DNA from: an uncultured virus (IMG/VR IMGVR_UViG_2740892240_000002)
Lineage: Duplodnaviria > Heunggongvirae > Uroviricota > Caudoviricetes
DNA length: 64,000 nt
Reading direction: 5' to 3' (one strand)
IMG/VR virus record: IMGVR_UViG_2740892240_000002
Coordinates: 1-64,000 of that record
In this document: piece after piece, positions 8,447 through 59,599 of the stretch
Layout: every line of letters starts with the position of its first letter
Position numbering within the stretch: the stretch's first letter is position 1
Position numbers and translations under genes: made by a program
Notes under the pieces: generated by a model
Database searches by the model: none
Told to the model about the DNA's origin: nothing
The model's input: only the letters and a program-made list of their open reading frames with translations

Positions 8447-11400
8447 CTAATCTCCTTTCCAAGTTTTGTCTTTTACCTAAAATTTTATCTGACTTAGTTG
8501 CCATTTTTTCTCCATCTACTTCAAGTGTTAAATTTAAATATATATCTTTATCGTTTGAGCTTCCTTGTAACATAGAACTCGCTATCGATTGAGCAGTTTG
8601 TCTAGCAGTCTCTAAAACCATTTGCTCACTTGATTCATGGTTATATATCTTAGTTCCAGAAGGTAGGTCATATAATTCATATCCACGCTCATGAAGATAT
8701 GTTAAACCACCTTTAAAGTGTGAGTTCCCTGTCCAGTTTCCATCAGGCTTTTTACCATGACTTTGAAAGAATGTATTTACAAAGAAGTTTTTAACTAGAC
8801 TTCCCCATCCACTATTCCAAGCATCTTTTAACTTATCCCAATTACTTTTAACTTTACCAGTTGTAATATCTACATCTTTGGTAATTTTTGAGTTCATAGA
8901 AGTTATTTCTTTAACTGCTTTATCTCTTGTTTCTTTAGCTGCATTTACAGTATCATCTCTTTGCTTCTTCGCATCTGCAATAAGTTTATCCCTTTGTTTT
9001 TCACTTATTGAACCAGTTTCTTGTTGCATTCTATATGCTTCAGCTATTCTTTCATCACATTCTTTATTAGCTGCTTCAATAGCCTTATCTCTAGAGTTAT
9101 TTAATTCTTTTATATGTTTAGATGCCATATCAGCAGTTATATTTTTATCATTATCTTTCATTCTTTCAAGAATTACTTTAGCTTCAACTTCATTTTCAGA
9201 TAGAGTCTTTATAGCACTAGTTTTCATACTTTGTTGAAGTTTATCAATTTCGTCAAATTCTTCTTTCTTTAATTTTCTATGTTCATTTGCTGCTTTTTCA
9301 TAAATAGCATTAATTTGATTTTGAGCTTTATCTATTTCTTGTTTTTGCTGAGTCCAATGACTTTTAGTTGCTTTTAAAGCTTCTTCTTTTTCTTTAGCTG
9401 AAAGAACAGTAGTTTTAGCAAAGAAATCTTTTTGGCTTTTTAACTCTGCATCTCTTTTTTTATCCATGCCATCTTTAATTTTATTAGCCATGTCTTTATA
9501 AACTTTTTGCATTTCTTGAGATTGTTTCTTTGATAATCCTACACTTTTATTTAATGTGTCTGTAAAGTCTTTTATAGTTTGGTCCTTTTGTTTTTGAGTT
9601 AAACCTTTAGTACCATTAACCATTGCAGTATATTGTTTTATTATTTCATCTTTATTTTTACTAGTTAAAACTCCAGTATCCGAAACTAATTTTTTAAAAT
9701 CTACAGTCATTTTTTCTCTTTGATCTTTCGATAGACTACTAGATTTTTTACTCATTTCTGTAAAGTTTTTAACTACAGTATCTTTCGCTTCTTTTGAGAA
9801 TTTATTTGAATTCATTCTTAAATTCATCATAGATTCACTAGCTTTTTTATCTAATTCTAAGTAGGACTGAACATTATCTTTCGTTGCTTTAGATATTTTA
9901 ATTACATCTTTTTCTGTAGCTTGTGCATAGTTTCCAAACTTATCTCTTGAAACTTCAACTTTATCTGCAAATAAATCTACTGCAGGTGTGGCACTTTTAT
10001 TTAAGTGTTCAGCAACTTTATATCCTGCATATCCAACGGCAGCTACTGCAGCTACACCTAATGCAATTGGTCCTAAAGAACCTATAACGGCAGCACCAAA
10101 TCCTCCAGCCGCAACCTCTGCTCCTGCTAATCCAACTCCTGCAGTTTCTGCTGCTGGAGCAAGTCCTAATAATATTTTTGAAAAATCACCAAATGTAGCA
10201 GCTGCTTTTAATGCTTTAAACTTTCCAACAGTTCCAATTAATCCACCTATACCATTAGATACATGGCCTAAACCACTAGTTATAGGACCCATTGCAATAG
10301 CAGCTAGTCCTGCTTTAACTATAAATTCTTGAGTGTGAGGACTTAAATTAGTAAAGCTATTTGCTAATTTAGTAATATCTCTAGCAACACTTGTTATAGC
10401 TGGAGCTAATGCTTGGAAAGTTTTTATTGCTGCACCTTCTAGAGCACTTCTCATTTCTGCTAAACTACCCTTTGCATTTTCACTCATAGTTTTAGCCATT
10501 TTAGCAGTAGCACCTTCACTATTATCTATAGCATTTGCTAATTTATTAAAATCTCCTTCACTAGCGTTTACCATTGCAAGCCAACCAGACATTGCTTCTT
10601 TACCAAAGATAGTAGCAGCGGCACTAGCTTGGGTAGCTTCATCTAAACCACCTAGTTTTTCTCTAAGCTCAACTAATACTTCTCTAAAGCTTTTCATCTT
10701 ACCATCGCTATTTTCTATAGATATCCCATACTTCTCCATCATAGCGGCCATACTATCCGTAGGCTTTACTAAGTTGGTTAATCCTGCTCTTAAAGCAGTA
10801 CCAGCTTGACTTGCCTTAATACCACTATTAGCCATTAAGCCTATAGCTAAAGAAGTGTCTTGAACACTATATCCTAAAGCACCAGCTACAGGAGCTGCAT
10901 ATTTAAAAGTTTCTCCCATCATACCAACGTTAGTATTGGCATTACTACTTGCAGCTGCTAATACATCACTAAACATACCAGCATCTTTAGCTTTTAATCC
11001 AAAACCTGTTAATGCATCTGTAACAATATCAGAAGTAGTTCCGAGGTCTTCATTAGATGCAATTGCTAAATTTAGTATAGGTTCTATACCTTCGAGCATA
11101 TCACCAGTTTTCCAACCAGCCATTGCCATATACTCCATACCTTCGCCTGCTTGTGCAGCACTAAATTTAGTTTTAGCTCCCATTTCTTGAGCCTTGTTTT
11201 CTAACTTTTTAAGATCATCACCAGTAGCACCAGAAATAGCTGCTACCTTATCCATTTGAGCTTCGTACTCCATACCTACATGAGCGGCAGCTACTCCTAT
11301 TCCTGTTAAAGGTAAACTAACATGAGTAGTAAGTTTTCCACCTATCTCTTGAGCTTTACTACCTACTTTTTTAAAGTTATTTCCTAAATCTTCAAGCTTT

Positions 11401-22430: not shown

Positions 22431-23111
22431 CTATTTTTTTATTGGTTCATTGAAAGAAGGTGGGTTAATATCTATCTTTGTATTATGATTGTTAGGTCCC
22501 GGACTAGATAAGTCAAAGTATAGTTTAGAGTCTTCAGTAACTCCAAAGTCTCTATTTGAACCTGTATCTTTAATCTTATTTAATGCATCTCTAAATAAAG
22601 CATTATGAGCTTCTTCTCTGTTAAGTAAGAAGTCTATTGTTTCTCTTACATATTTATCGTCAATTTGTCTATATAAATATTCATATACAACTTTTGCTCT
22701 TTGCTCTGATGCTATATTTGATAATAGATCTGCAACTAAGTCTCCTGTTACAGTAACATAATCAGCAGTCCAAGGTGCTCCTGAAGAATTTATTAGAACT
22801 GGTGATAGTCCAGTTAATACATGTGTCTCTATTTCCCCAGAATCAACTGCATTGTAGTCAACATCATGTCCATTTAGTAAATTTATTGTTTGAGCAACCA
22901 TTTCCATATGGCTAAGTTCTTCAGCTGCTATATCAAGAAATAAATCTTTTATCTCTTTATCTTTTATTCTAAAGCTTTGAGATAAATATTGCATTGCTGC
23001 TTTTAACTCTCCGTTTCCTCCTCCTAATTGCTCTTGCATTAAAACTGCATATTGAGGATTTGGTCTTTCTACTTTTACTTCTCTTAACAGTTTTTTATCG
23101 TGTTTAAACAT
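22431..23111 (-). CDS. Manganese catalase family protein (YdbD/CotJC-like)
   Basis: EQLGGGNGEL, EELSH and REEAH di-metal motifs. Confidence 0.92.
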   Translation of the reverse strand: MFKHDKKLLREVKVERPNPQYAVLMQEQLGGGNGELKAAMQYLSQSFRIKDKEIKDLFLDIAAEELSHMEMVAQTINLLNGHDVDYNAVDSGEIETHVLTGLSPVLINSSGAPWTADYVTVTGDLVADLLSNIASEQRAKVVYEYLYRQIDDKYVRETIDFLLNREEAHNALFRDALNKIKDTGSNRDFGVTEDSKLYFDLSSPGPNNHNTKIDINPPSFNEPIKK

Positions 23112-23142
23112 CAACTATACCTCCAAAATCATAATTAGTAAT

Positions 23143-23378: not shown

Positions 23379-23927
23379 TTAAAAATATCTAAAGCTCGTA
23401 TAAGCTTTATTCATTCTGTCTTGATCTATACCTATATAATGTAAGGTTACAGCTGGAGATGAATGGTTAAATATCTTCTGAAGTAATGCTATATCTTTAG
23501 TTTGCTTATAGTAATGATATCCCCATGTTTTTCTCATACTATGGGTTCCTAAACAAGGAACATCAAATAATTCTCCCAACTCTTTTAAAATCACATATGC
23601 TCTTTCTCTAGATATAGGTCTATTGTAGTTTTTACGTGATTTAATTAAAAAATCATCAGGATCCTTATCCTCTACATAATCTTTAATTGCTCTTTTCAGT
23701 ATTGGGTTTATCTCTATGAATTTTTGTTTCCCTGTTTTCTTTTCTCTTAAGACTATTTGCCTTTTATCTTTTACATCATATATTCTAAGCTTCAATATAT
23801 CTGATACTCTAAGACCTGTATATATACCCATCATAAATAGAAGGTAGTCTCTTTCATTTGTCTTTTTTAAATATGAACACATATTTTCTAATGTATCTAA
23901 ATTTCTAATAGGTTCTACATAGTTCAT
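23379..23927 (-). CDS. Small tyrosine recombinase (catalytic domain only)
   Basis: TGLRVSD, HSMRKT and HSS...YIG catalytic residues. Confidence 0.92.
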   Translation of the reverse strand: MNYVEPIRNLDTLENMCSYLKKTNERDYLLFMMGIYTGLRVSDILKLRIYDVKDKRQIVLREKKTGKQKFIEINPILKRAIKDYVEDKDPDDFLIKSRKNYNRPISRERAYVILKELGELFDVPCLGTHSMRKTWGYHYYKQTKDIALLQKIFNHSSPAVTLHYIGIDQDRMNKAYTSFRYF

Positions 23928-24340: not shown

Positions 24341-24373
24341 AAAAAAGCCAGGTGAGAAAGTCCTGACTTTTTT
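24341..24373 (-). terminator. Intrinsic terminator after the late-leader RNA
   Basis: agtcagg/cctggct stem plus U tract on the minus strand. Confidence 0.7.
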
Positions 24374-24413: not shown

Positions 24414-24466
24414 CTAGTTTATACTCCATACCGCTACAGAGTGCTCTTAAGAGCCGTAAAGTTATA
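24414..24466 (-). ncRNA. Conserved late-leader motif containing boxA-like GGCTCTTAAG
   Basis: Near-identical to 58804-58855 in prophage 2. Confidence 0.55.
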
Positions 24467-24467
24467 T

Positions 24468-24540
24468 TGGTGAGGGTTAAAAGGAATCGAACCTCTTATC
24501 TTCTAAATAAATAGCTATTTTACCATTAAACTATATCCTC
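24468..24540 (-). ncRNA. tRNA-like element with degenerate anticodon arm, ending in ACCA
   Basis: GAGGATA-TA-GTTTAATGGTAAAAT...AGAGG TTCGATT CCTTT...CCCTC-A-CCA. Confidence 0.7.
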
Positions 24541-24676
24541 ACGTTGCTAGGGTAAATTTATACCCTAGCCATTATATAAAGAGGGGGTTATTAGGAAATA
24601 AGCAATTGAGTTATTTTAAATTTCCTATACTACTATATTACCACCTCTGAATGTATAAAAAATCTTTACTTTATCG

Positions 24677-25180
24677 CTAAAATGTAGCCAAAGTGTTGGC
24701 TTTACTATTATTTTCATTAAATAATGGTAGTTCTTCATAGTTCGGATACAACATACCCATAATTTTATAAACTAATCGCTCTCTTACTGTGTAGCAATGA
24801 CTGCGATCCATGTGTAGCTTAAGGCTTATATATTTCATATTATTTTTATTTTTGCTATTATAAAATAATTCAAAGAAATTAGTTTCATTAACATCTAAGC
24901 AACTTAATGAGTTTTCTATTTTCGCTTTCTCTATTTCTTTTTCTAATTTACTTTGCATCAATTTATCTATTTTCTTCTCTTTATCTATAACCTCTTTTTC
25001 AACAATTCTAGAAATATTATAAGTTTCACTTGTTCTTTCACCATAATTTATAGCTCCACAACCTCTATATCTCATTTTCTCTTTCTTTATATCTAATTCT
25101 ATATTATTTATTTGAGCTTCTAGAAACTTATAATTATGCAATCTTAATTCTACTTTTTTAAATAATTCTTTTTTCTCCAT
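24677..25180 (-). CDS. ArpU/RinA-like late transcriptional regulator
   Basis: Coiled coil plus C-terminal sigma4-like HTH; last early gene before the late leader. Confidence 0.75.
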   Translation of the reverse strand: MEKKELFKKVELRLHNYKFLEAQINNIELDIKKEKMRYRGCGAINYGERTSETYNISRIVEKEVIDKEKKIDKLMQSKLEKEIEKAKIENSLSCLDVNETNFFELFYNSKNKNNMKYISLKLHMDRSHCYTVRERLVYKIMGMLYPNYEELPLFNENNSKANTLATF

Positions 25181-33521: not shown

Positions 33522-35123
33522 GTGATAATATTGATTGCTGCAATATATTCAAGAAAATCAAAATTCACTGGAAAAGGTGAATCTATAGAAAACCAAATAC
33601 AACTTTGTATGGACTATGCTAAAAACCTAGGAATAAATGAATTTTTAGTATACGAAGATGAAGGTTTTTCTGGTAAATCTATGGATAGACCAAAGTTTAA
33701 AGAAATGCTTAAAGATGCTAAAGATAAAAAGTTTGATTATTTAATATGTTATAGATTAGATAGAATATCCCGTAATGTTTCTGACTTCTCTACTCTTATA
33801 GAAGATCTAAATAAGCTTAATATATCTTTCGTATCAATTAAAGAACAATTTGATACTAGTACTCCTATGGGACGTGCTATGATGTATATATCATCTGTAT
33901 TCGCTCAGTTAGAACGAGAAACTATAGCTGAACGTGTTAGAGATAATATGTATGAGTTAGCTAGAACTGGAAGATGGCTAGGAGGTATGCCTCCATATGG
34001 TTTTATTAGTACTCAAATTACCTACTATGATGAAAATATGAATCAAAGAAAAATGTATAAACTTAAAGTTGATGAAGATACAATAGAAATTGTTAAGTTG
34101 ATATTTGATAAGTATTTAGAGCTTAGATCACTTTCAAAACTATATAAATATATGTATGAGAATGGAATTAAAGGAACTCGTGGAGGTAACCTTGATCCTA
34201 GTGCCTTATCTTTAATTCTAAAAAATCCAGCATATGTTAAAGCTGATAAAAGTGTAGTTGATTATCTAAGAAAGTCTAATATAGATGTTATGGGAGATAC
34301 AGACAATATACATGGTATCCTAACTTATGCTAAAAATACAGATAGTCCTATAGCTGCTGTTGCTAAACATAAAGGTGTCATAGATTCGGATAAATGGATT
34401 GAAGCCCAAAGGTTACTTAATGCAAATAAAGCTAAAGCTCCTAGGGCTGGAACTGGAAGTAAAGCATTATTATCAGGTCTTTTAAAATGTTCTAAGTGTG
34501 GCTCTAATATGAGAATTACTTATAAAAACTCTAAAAGTGGCACTATCTATTATTACATATGTGGAACAAAGAAATCTTTAGGAGTATCAGCTTGTGATTG
34601 TAGAAATATCAGATCTGATAAGGCTGAATCTAAAGTTATAGATGAATTAAAAAATAAAAGTATTAAATCTATAATGTCAAGTTATAAAGATAGCAAGTTA
34701 GAAAATTCTAAGAATAGGAAAAATATAAAAACTGAGATAAACTCAATAAATAATCAGATTAAAGAAAAAGAAACATACATTGATAATTTAGTTATGCAAT
34801 TAGCCAAGGTTACCGAAAGCTCTGCATCTACTTTTATAATCAATAAATTAGAATCTTTAAATAATGACTTATCTAATTTAAAATCACAATTAGAATCTTT
34901 AAATACTATGTCTATGGAAAATAAGCAAGTTGATATTAATATAAATATGCTTATAGATAATTTAAATAAATTCAATAAAGAAATTGATACCTCTGATATC
35001 AATAAGAAGAGACTGTTACTATCTACGGTAGTAGATTACATGACATGGGACTCTGATACAGACACAATAAAGGTAAACCTAATAGGTATCAATCCAAGCA
35101 ATACTATAGCTTTAGATAAATAG
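33522..35123 (+). CDS. Large serine recombinase (integrase)
   Basis: YSRKS catalytic motif, DEGFSG, RLDRISR, recombinase domain, CSKC Zn ribbon and coiled coil; probable start TTG 33531. Confidence 0.96.
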   Translation: MIILIAAIYSRKSKFTGKGESIENQIQLCMDYAKNLGINEFLVYEDEGFSGKSMDRPKFKEMLKDAKDKKFDYLICYRLDRISRNVSDFSTLIEDLNKLNISFVSIKEQFDTSTPMGRAMMYISSVFAQLERETIAERVRDNMYELARTGRWLGGMPPYGFISTQITYYDENMNQRKMYKLKVDEDTIEIVKLIFDKYLELRSLSKLYKYMYENGIKGTRGGNLDPSALSLILKNPAYVKADKSVVDYLRKSNIDVMGDTDNIHGILTYAKNTDSPIAAVAKHKGVIDSDKWIEAQRLLNANKAKAPRAGTGSKALLSGLLKCSKCGSNMRITYKNSKSGTIYYYICGTKKSLGVSACDCRNIRSDKAESKVIDELKNKSIKSIMSSYKDSKLENSKNRKNIKTEINSINNQIKEKETYIDNLVMQLAKVTESSASTFIINKLESLNNDLSNLKSQLESLNTMSMENKQVDININMLIDNLNKFNKEIDTSDINKKRLLLSTVVDYMTWDSDTDTIKVNLIGINPSNTIALDK

Positions 35124-58713: not shown

Positions 58714-58758
58714 ATAAAAAAGCCACTAATCTTTTTAAGATTTAGTGACTTTTTTATT
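58714..58758 (-). terminator. Intrinsic terminator between the late leader and terS
   Basis: agtcacta...tagtggct plus U tract. Confidence 0.75.
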
Positions 58759-58803: not shown

Positions 58804-58855
58804 TAGTTTATACTCCATACCGCTATAGAGTTCTCAAAGAGCCGTAAAGTTATAA
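58804..58855 (-). ncRNA. Conserved late-leader motif with boxA-like GGCTCTTTGAGAAC
   Basis: Near-identical to 24414-24466. Confidence 0.55.
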
Positions 58856-58859
58856 TATT

Positions 58860-58933
58860 TGATGAGAATATATGGTTTCGAACCATATTCTACTAATAAA
58901 TTTAGCTGTTTTCCCATATTAAACTATATCCTC
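58860..58933 (-). ncRNA. tRNA-like element with shortened anticodon arm
   Basis: Acceptor GAGGATA/TATTCTC; D stem GTTT/AAAC; T arm TATGG-TTCGAAA-CCATA; anticodon arm GCTAA-ATTTA-TTAGT. Confidence 0.72.
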
Positions 58934-59113
58934 ATATATAGATTAAATACAAATCTATCTTAATTATTTTATATAAAATAATGTAATCGATAGTAAGTAG
59001 TTAATATTGTATAATTTCTTTATACTAATATAATATCATACTTACTATCAATTTAATTCTTCACTTTTTCCGAAGTTTTTCTAAAAATATATACTCATTC
59101 AAGATTAAAATTT

Positions 59114-59599
59114 TTATCTACTATGATTTTCAAAATTATAAAGTGGAAAAATTATAGGTATAGATTTTTTTATCATATTTTCTCTTATGGAGTAATACGT
59201 ATCTTTTCCTACATTCATTTTTAATCCATATACTTGCCAATTTTTTATATTTTGTATGTATCTAATATTAAACATTTCATTTTCTTCTTTATTAAAGTTA
59301 TCTATAGCTCTCTCAACTCGTTTTATACTTACCTCTTTTTCATACTTTAATTGTTCTAATAACTGTAACTTCTTCTGTTTTTGAATAATTTCTATTTCAA
59401 CAGGTGAATTTATATTATCACTTTTTTGAACTTTTTCTAAATACTCAGTTGACCTAAAACCATTGTAATCAAACTTTATAAATTCTATCTCTTCTTCTAT
59501 ACATATAACTTCTCTTTTTAAATCTTTAAATTGATAAAATAGACTTTCAACTTTATTAAATAAGTTATGTTTTTTTGATACTTTTACTGTAGTACTCAT
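59114..59599 (-). CDS. ArpU/RinA-like late regulator
   Basis: Positional and architectural counterpart of 24677-25180. Confidence 0.7.
   Translation of the reverse strand: MSTTVKVSKKHNLFNKVESLFYQFKDLKREVICIEEEIEFIKFDYNGFRSTEYLEKVQKSDNINSPVEIEIIQKQKKLQLLEQLKYEKEVSIKRVERAIDNFNKEENEMFNIRYIQNIKNWQVYGLKMNVGKDTYYSIRENMIKKSIPIIFPLYNFENHSR

Follow-up and report, generated by a model that had tools for sequence, protein, structure and literature searches.

What purpose does a phage RNA serve when it keeps the acceptor, D, and T arms of a tRNA and lacks the anticodon arm of a decoding one? The window (the whole 64,000-nucleotide stretch of viral DNA analyzed here) raises this question twice, as each of its two prophages carries such an RNA in its late leader. 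For the copy in prophage 1, an earlier note had offered three functions: an RNase P/Z processing signal, a decoy for tRNA-targeting defenses, or part of an antitermination RNA. As developed below, it is very likely that selection acts on the elbow and top half of the molecule. We propose, with a probability of about 0.5, that the module acts in cis in the late transcript as a cleavage signal for RNase P (and RNase Z), similar to mascRNA. The leader of prophage 1 and its surroundings contain the following features.

24677..25180, minus strand: late activator gene of prophage 1, of the RinA/ArpU (Ltr) type
24699-24680: direct repeats, seen in the sequence, overlapping the 3' end of the activator gene
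24628..24643, minus strand: late promoter of prophage 1, with an extended -10 element TG-n-TAATAT at 24643-24635 and a predicted start at 24628
24581..24588, minus strand: C-rich tract that recurs in leaders of relatives
24546..24569, minus strand: 9-bp hairpin ending 5 nt before module position +1 (fold z-score, -3.1)
24468..24540, minus strand: tRNA-like module copy 1 (Rfam RF00005, fold, covariation, and clade conservation)
24540-24534 with 24478-24472, minus strand: acceptor of copy 1, 5 of 7 pairs, with an extra T at 24479
24531-24517, minus strand: D arm of copy 1
24515-24502, minus strand: truncated anticodon arm of copy 1, CTA-TTTATT-TAG inside a G.A pair
24496-24480, minus strand: T arm of copy 1
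24471-24468, minus strand: 3' end of copy 1, ACCA
24417..24462, minus strand: downstream motif copy 1, a short 5' segment, an 8-bp hairpin (24442-24423) with a GCGG/GAGG loop, then ATAAAC
24341..24373, minus strand: intrinsic terminator that ends the leader, ~290 nt after the predicted start

The D and T arms, truncated anticodon arm, ACCA end, 9-bp hairpin, motif, and terminator described by the earlier note were all recovered in place. The acceptor arm is likewise present, but two of its seven pairs are mismatched (A5.C68 and A7.A66) and it carries the extra T, neither of which had been mentioned. Such T gains are seen also in relatives L003 and L312, and position 7.66 is mostly unpaired in the compact modules described below, as it is in copy 1. 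In Rfam searches, copy 1 matched RF00005 over the whole model at 34.1 bits (cut-off, 29; E value on the local stretch, 2e-5). Its anticodon arm has three pairs and 6 nt in place of the 5-bp stem and 7-nt loop of a decoding tRNA. The elbow residues U8, A14, G18, and G19 (D arm) and U54, U55, C56, and A58 (T arm) are present and invariant across the 31 distinct regions of the copy 1 clade. U(-1)/G(-2) are able to pair with A73/C74. The cloverleaf has a folding energy of -5.9 kcal/mol versus -12.5 kcal/mol for the minimum-energy fold, and the folding z-score is only -0.9.

Prophage 2 repeats this arrangement with the following features.

59114-59599: activator gene of prophage 2 (PHROG 36)
59023..59038, minus strand: putative late promoter of prophage 2, placed by homology, with a predicted start at 59023
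58860..58933, minus strand: tRNA-like module copy 2, with acceptor, D, and T arms fully paired, a 5-nt anticodon loop, and an ATCA end
58806..58850, minus strand: downstream motif copy 2
58716..58755, minus strand: strong leader terminator of prophage 2, ending ~16 nt before the ribosome-binding site of terS (58689)

The compensatory T-stem changes reported for this second copy were confirmed, in that two pairs differ from copy 1 on both sides. The similarity is less complete at the ends: copy 2 terminates in ATCA rather than ACCA, and its 5' hairpin is weak (-3.3 kcal/mol). A 7-bp acceptor stem is present, and the anticodon arm comprises five pairs and 5 nt. ARAGORN had been expected to return a pseudo or undetermined tRNA; it called no tRNA at copy 1 (24540-24468), but it called copy 2 a tRNA-Lys(ttt). 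On one shared body, the program assigned the identities Lys, Ser, Pro, and Glu (L009/L024/L031/L058 and window copy 2, at 58861-58934 in this case), and its identity calls for modules in these prophages are unreliable. The two prophages are morphologically unrelated, as the earlier note had it. Prophage 2, with a tail sheath and a baseplate wedge protein, looks like a myovirus type; prophage 1, whose scanned proteins include a major tail protein but no sheath, looks like a siphovirus type. Between its late leader and terS, prophage 1 carries a manganese-catalase gene as cargo (22431-23114, minus strand). Its late region also holds a small tyrosine recombinase consisting of a catalytic domain only (23379-23927, minus strand), distinct from the large recombinase at 33522-35123; a small tyrosine recombinase gene downstream recurs in such late regions. 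The named genomes carrying the downstream motif (six in all) comprise three of Paraclostridium, one of Romboutsia, one Anaerovoracaceae MAG, and one chance match, from which we infer a Paraclostridium-like host.

Both copies sit 3' of PHROG 36 (RinA/ArpU-type) genes. For prophage 1, the PHROG 36 match (E value, 1e-24) agrees with the ArpU-like identity first suggested, the match to TIGR01636 RinA being weak and below its cut-off. RinA/ArpU proteins, according to the available portions of PMC3753634 and PMC3152322, activate a late promoter adjoining direct repeats at the 3' end of their own gene. Start sites of a homologous promoter have been mapped in both prophages of C. difficile 630, namely TSS_613 (an orphan) and TSS_1845 (PMC8237595, Dataset S1). 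TSS_613 and TSS_614 are 633 nt apart, and the same distance was counted in phiCD119, whose leader holds two modules. With this spacing transferred by alignment, the predicted starts at 24628 and 59023 would place the modules 88 and 90 nt downstream. C-rich, anti-Shine-Dalgarno-like tracts, of which the one in the window is an example, occur near leader 5' ends and directly 3' of several modules (also in L383 and L427), and these are possible small-RNA seeds.

Relatives of the window copies were collected with the downstream motif alone, giving 36 plus 59 loci in viral contigs, with one chance match dropped from the first set; L014, L028, L291, L316, and L356 belong to a near-identical record and do not count as independent. 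The region upstream of the motif holds 33 distinct cloverleaf variants (29 parsed, plus 4 with a T stem that failed the filter), four compact forms, and, in two loci, no module. The earlier note had reasoned that mostly intact homologs with a normal anticodon loop would indicate simple decay, and such homologs do form part of the set. A normal 7-nt loop is present in 13 of the 33 variants (10 with UUC and one each with UUU, UGA, and UGG). The remaining 20 have lost it, by way of a 6-nt loop (2 variants), a shortened arm with a loop down to 1 to 3 nt (16 variants), or an insertion of ~55 nt (2 variants). At L022:1274-1417, L027:1248-1392, and L333, the anticodon loop of the module has taken up an insert of ~55 nt that contains two small hairpins. 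Because the UUC loop (CUUUCAU) occurs in four of five T-stem types and in differing anticodon stems, UUC is taken as ancestral and copy 1 as derived by deletion; the copy 1 lineage thus appears to descend from a tRNA-Glu(UUC)-like gene.

A more compact form of the module occupies the same leader slot in Peptostreptococcaceae phages, among them the C. difficile phages phiCD505, phiCD119, and phiC2, which have two units each. In a compact unit of ~40 nt, a linker of 8 to 22 nt connects an acceptor-like helix of 7 bp to a T arm. These units are flanked by the hairpin and downstream motif that also flank copy 1, and two or three modules per leader are seen in C. difficile phages and others. The phiCD-type leader matches 27 phage records, with no RNA annotated beneath. 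An acceptor plus T-arm helix was detected on the sense strand of 27 of 110 regions picked by activator gene alone (the best-scoring PHROG 36 matches among those listed), compared with 3 on the antisense strand and 0 to 5 in 20 shuffles; about 5 of the 27 are probably chance matches, and one known module was missed. Model R1, built from the compact modules, gave matches in 25 of 112 family genomes, with host tRNAs scoring below 16 bits. In the order sample, 6 of 151 genomes matched (five family members and one marginal), and a class sample of 151 returned the center genome only; this search scored only 38 to 52 candidates per genome, and divergent members can be missed.

In an alignment of 37 compact modules, 92% of cells are paired and nine pairs have changed on both sides. 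G19-C56 is possible in 35 of the 37, and linker bases 3 and 4 follow T-loop position 55, with GG accompanying U55 in 21 modules, AG accompanying G55 in 15, and another combination in 1. Among 20 new model matches, counted after two marginal ones had been dropped, 17 were concordant with this 18:55 rule, 1 was discordant, 1 was misparsed by one base, and 1 was decayed. Such covariation marks a D-loop/T-loop elbow that has been retained although the D stem is gone; the lineages being few, it perhaps represents two or three independent switches.

Intermediate forms were also found, among them D-less units with a CUUUCAU stem-loop (L444 and L454), short-looped tRNA bodies of other types (L454 and L675), and intact tRNA-Asn genes that share arrays or leaders with modules (L675 and L444). 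The array at L675:1010-1553 contains, in order, a minihelix, a hairpin, an intact tRNA-Asn, a tRNA body whose loop is the 6-nt CUUUAU, further hairpins, a second minihelix, and a terminator; the same 6-nt loop arose also in L300 and L320. Copy 1 is an intermediate, somewhat eroded stage in the series that runs from intact tRNA through loop-less cloverleaf and D-less forms to the 40-nt minihelix. Leader remnants bearing modules stand in apparently nonphage chromosomal contexts (L681, L693, L694, and L696 to L700), and several of these have lost T-loop A58, which suggests decay once outside a working prophage. When the window and 25 related loci were searched against Rfam, tRNA was the only match, and a BLAST search of the window leader against annotated phages returned only a Bacillus phage tRNA pair (2 records). 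Two loose sequence patterns gave mostly chance matches among the matches listed. The family of compact and cloverleaf modules is uncatalogued.

The position of the module suggests how it might work. The upstream hairpin ends 3 to 7 nt before +1 in 47 of 52 modules. U(-1)/G(+1) is found in 36 of 37 compact modules; U(-1) is also present in 42 of 53 host tRNAs and formed part of two search patterns. In the minimal leaders L388, L390, and L414, a similar hairpin is followed by a U tract and constitutes a terminator, and in module leaders the module replaces the U tract. In two other, unrelated phages, the hairpin and module come immediately after a structural gene, the major head gene in L612 and the major tail gene in L685, and single modules between structural genes lie 15 to 31 nt from coding sequence. 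It is this placement, in leaders and behind structural genes, that leads us to read the module as a cleavage signal giving a protected 3' end without termination, in the way that mascRNA acts for MALAT1. It is dispensable, given the module-free leaders L304 and L332.

Under this proposal, phages would have captured a tRNA gene, in this lineage one of tRNA-Glu(UUC)-like ancestry, and kept it for its top half and elbow rather than for decoding. The late activator would start transcription ~88 nt upstream of the module, which would fold into an acceptor/T-arm stack with a G18-G19/T-loop elbow, as conservation and covariation suggest. A cut by host RNase P at U(-1)/G(+1) would then give the upstream RNA a protected 3' end made of the hairpin and ~5 nt, and the 3' side would be trimmed by RNase Z (in CCA-less forms) or by exonucleases. 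The hairpin and module together would thus create a defined 3' end without stopping RNA polymerase, and the leader would be divided into separate small RNAs. Behind capsid or tail-tube genes, a module would uncouple the stability of abundant late messages from that of scarce ones.

The features that are kept are consistent with this proposal. A 12-bp coaxial acceptor/T helix capped by the T loop is found family-wide with covariation and is imperfect in copy 1. RNase P, in the part of PMC10731613 available, reads the 12-bp helix, the T loop, and U(-1)/G(+1), and RNase Z, in the corresponding part of PMC4919913, clamps the elbow of CCA-less substrates. CCA is encoded in only 3 of 37 compact forms, in which both the discriminator and the acceptor sequence are free to vary; the discriminator base varies across the module family. 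The kept features thus appear to be those read by RNase P and RNase Z, and the free features those read by synthetases and ribosomes. Transcript data were surveyed for the C. difficile-type leader L383. Reads of run X23 cover gene and leader evenly on both strands (unstranded, with no piled ends and no silent control); X21 gave 13 reads, X1 none, and X9 four contigs. The 3'-end table of C. difficile 630 has no entry at the first leader (positions beginning 10948-10952), and the 3' end at 3396911 is the U tract of a terminator, 8 nt before a module. Counting against the reading are this table, the acceptor mismatches, T gains, and higher-energy cloverleaf of copy 1, the potential pairing of its U(-1)/G(-2), the frequency of U(-1) in host tRNAs, and the existence of module-free leaders. 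Of the three functions originally offered, the processing signal fits best.

The kept features fit any elbow-reading protein, and hence a decoy too. The functional product would then be the excised 40- to 75-nt RNA itself, a stable mimic of tRNA by which host proteins that read the elbow or acceptor end are titrated, with tRNA-end-modifying toxins, defense sensors, and processing enzymes as candidate targets; the same processing would be needed as for a cleavage signal. The presence of two or three modules per leader, their interleaving with intact tRNA genes, the CCA kept in 28 of 31 cloverleaf variants, and a strong late promoter serving a terminator-closed leader are all in keeping with such a product. 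A product of this kind is harder to reconcile with the freedom of the acceptor sequence and discriminator, and the single modules wedged between structural genes look cis-acting. Moreover, copy 1 has no anticodon, so that part of the decoy idea directed at anticodon nucleases is ruled out for it, and a decoy for readers of the elbow or acceptor end is the part that stays viable. Overall, we consider a decoy as the function unlikely. The two activities might also be combined: Peptostreptococcaceae phages would repeatedly turn captured tRNA genes into a 40-nt elbow that cuts the late transcript via RNase P/Z and, released as a stable mini-tRNA, acts as a decoy against defenses that read the elbow or 3' end. 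The minimal elbow would then consist of the acceptor, the T arm, and a two-base dock with a switch from G18.U55 to A18.G55, which would make it a bacterial equivalent of mascRNA that has its own function. This broader scheme is speculative and improbable as a whole.

Plain decay, in which a phage tRNA-Glu(UUC) gene lost its function and is drifting, could account for the CUUUCAU loop retained in 10 of 33 cloverleaf variants, across four of five T-stem lineages and different anticodon stems. It would also suit the UUC variant that scores 62.8 Rfam bits, inside the host tRNA range of 50 to 77, as well as the acceptor mismatches and T gains of copy 1. The distribution of changes argues the other way. 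Across the 31 distinct regions (62 loci) that make up the anticodon-less clade of copy 1, 0 of 20 elbow-core columns are variable, compared with 21 of 53 in the rest of the tRNA and 62 of 99 in the spacers, the last figure being inflated by one recombinant. Nucleotide diversity (pi) is 0 in the elbow core, 0.077 in other tRNA positions, and about 0.10 in spacers; the filter named core letters, yet no motif-bearing locus was lost through a core change. The loop has changed in four of five lineages, and the D and T loops in none. Compensatory changes in the anticodon stem and T stem follow loop loss, unrelated tRNA bodies in the same slot are also short-looped (L454 and L675), and the compact family is left unexplained by decay. 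Covariation, on which the earlier note had staked its interpretation, was found in the cloverleaf alignment (31 of the 33 variants, two long ones being omitted): the D stem is 100% paired and the T stem 96.6% paired, eight pairs have changed on both sides, and the covariation score was reached by 0 of 500 shuffles, although kinship among the sequences inflates these and all other counts given here. Decay is therefore quite unlikely as a full account. The invariant core, covarying stems, and compact relatives that keep the acceptor, T arm, and 18:55 contact together support the earlier view that the elbow, and probably not decoding, is selected.

The cleavage-signal reading must also be weighed against a role in antitermination, in which the module would be part of a cotranscriptional RNA similar to the antiterminator RNAs put and EAR and would let polymerase pass the leader terminator. 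Such a terminator stands directly before terS in prophage 2 and relatives, and further same-strand terminators lie within both late regions (at about 55374, 50376, 21802, 20220, 13223, and 8312). The downstream hairpin motif, in addition, shows stronger conservation than the module and can occur by itself, as in L332 and L304. These points are weakened by the terminator counts, which come from a rough scan with a promoter recognized in only 33 of the 110 regions (best-scoring matches listed): a terminator comes after the late promoter in 13 of the 17 module-free leaders and in 14 of the 16 that carry a module, or 27 of the 33 recognized RinA-type late promoters. There is also no match to an Rfam antiterminator family, module number and type vary freely, and the module stands behind, not before, the hairpin in L612 and L685. 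We therefore regard antitermination by the module as very doubtful.

The downstream motif alone may have a role in antitermination and may resemble boxA/nut. With a pi of 0.019 in the clade, it is the best-conserved stretch apart from the elbow core, and in 50 of 52 distinct copies its two variable stem pairs are still paired, often through G.U. The boxA/nut-like segment differs from one lineage to another, and other lineages show per-sequence stems; RNAalifold gave no consensus on a MAFFT alignment of 14 motif variants, in which the alignment broke the stems. Relatives of the downstream hairpin (L407, L444, L447, L610, L617, and L683) have different stems, a common loop that contains GGUA, and an AUAAAC-like tail. 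The hairpin is a separate uncatalogued RNA motif. An integration-site remnant was rejected, as no host tRNA resembles the module (the best global scores, of mixed isotype, are low), covariation involves both acceptor strands, and the large recombinase gene of the prophage is ~9 kb away. Theta (HDV-like) ribozymes are tRNA associated, with an HDV-like fold directly 3' of the tRNA; near the module, no Rfam ribozyme matched to an E value of 10 in the local stretch.

The late leaders of C. difficile phages that have been well studied carry the module without an annotation for it, and the literature surveyed, older subscription literature being outside its coverage, holds no description of the family. 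It is unmentioned in the available parts of PMC8583004 and PMC7205517. If the cleavage-signal reading is correct, the compact form would be a natural minimal RNase P/Z substrate and a minimal tRNA elbow, smaller than mascRNA, and phages of low-GC Gram-positive hosts would set late-gene stoichiometry by processing instead of termination. The family also displays 18:55 tertiary covariation, which is rarely visible in tRNAs. The family shows how structure, instead of decoding, can become the use of a phage tRNA gene, and some phage "pseudo-tRNAs" and odd anticodon calls (Lys, Ser, and Pro in these leaders) are accordingly misannotated.

Among known systems, phage tRNA-Glu(UUC) genes represent the presumed ancestral state of the lineage (CUUUCAU loop and 4-nt variable loop), from which the window copies differ in being unable to form a 7-nt loop. 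T4 RNAC and RNAD, tRNA-like RNAs of the T4 tRNA cluster, presumably share an enlarged interior with L022 and L027; T4 is a lytic coliphage, unlike the phages that carry the module. They are described in the available part of PMC9697503 as stable phage small RNAs expressed late. StxS, in the portion of PMC7547250 available, derives from the PR' late leader of Shiga toxin phages and involves a terminated late leader processed into a small RNA, as proposed for the module; unlike the module, it uses RNase E and Hfq with Q antitermination and involves no tRNA mimicry. The phi80 M3 RNA, the P1/P7 C4 RNA, and the tRNA-like domain of pre-tmRNA are nondecoding RNase P substrates, cut by way of the 12-bp helix, T loop, and U(-1)/G(+1), as far as the available parts of PMC11143913 and PMC10731613 describe them. 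The module resembles them in the 12-bp helix and T loop and has no sequence or Rfam link to them; it belongs to a modular family in Gram-positive temperate phages, with a series from intact tRNA to minihelix.

The closest analogs are mascRNA and menRNA. In the available part of PMC11693755, these are tRNA mimics that keep the acceptor stem, the T stem-loop, and two D-loop guanines, with reduced D and anticodon parts, and they specify the RNase P cut by which the upstream RNA acquires its 3' end, followed by RNase Z cleavage and CCA addition. The elbow of a T loop and a purine-G dinucleotide recurs in the phage modules (GG/U55 or AG/G55 in 36 of 37; G19-C56 in 35 of 37). The context of mascRNA and menRNA is a eukaryotic long noncoding RNA, and four arms remain in mascRNA; the compact phage forms, by contrast, have neither D nor anticodon stem and can switch to A18 with G55. 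Their upstream protector is a simple hairpin, unlike that of mascRNA, and their processing is a prediction. With tRNA as the only Rfam match, the module has no homology to the MALAT1 or MEN-beta 3' ends and is an analog, not a member, of that group. tRNA-like RNase P substrates are thus already known in M3, C4, tmRNA, and mascRNA, and the module family of C. difficile and related phages is an uncatalogued one.
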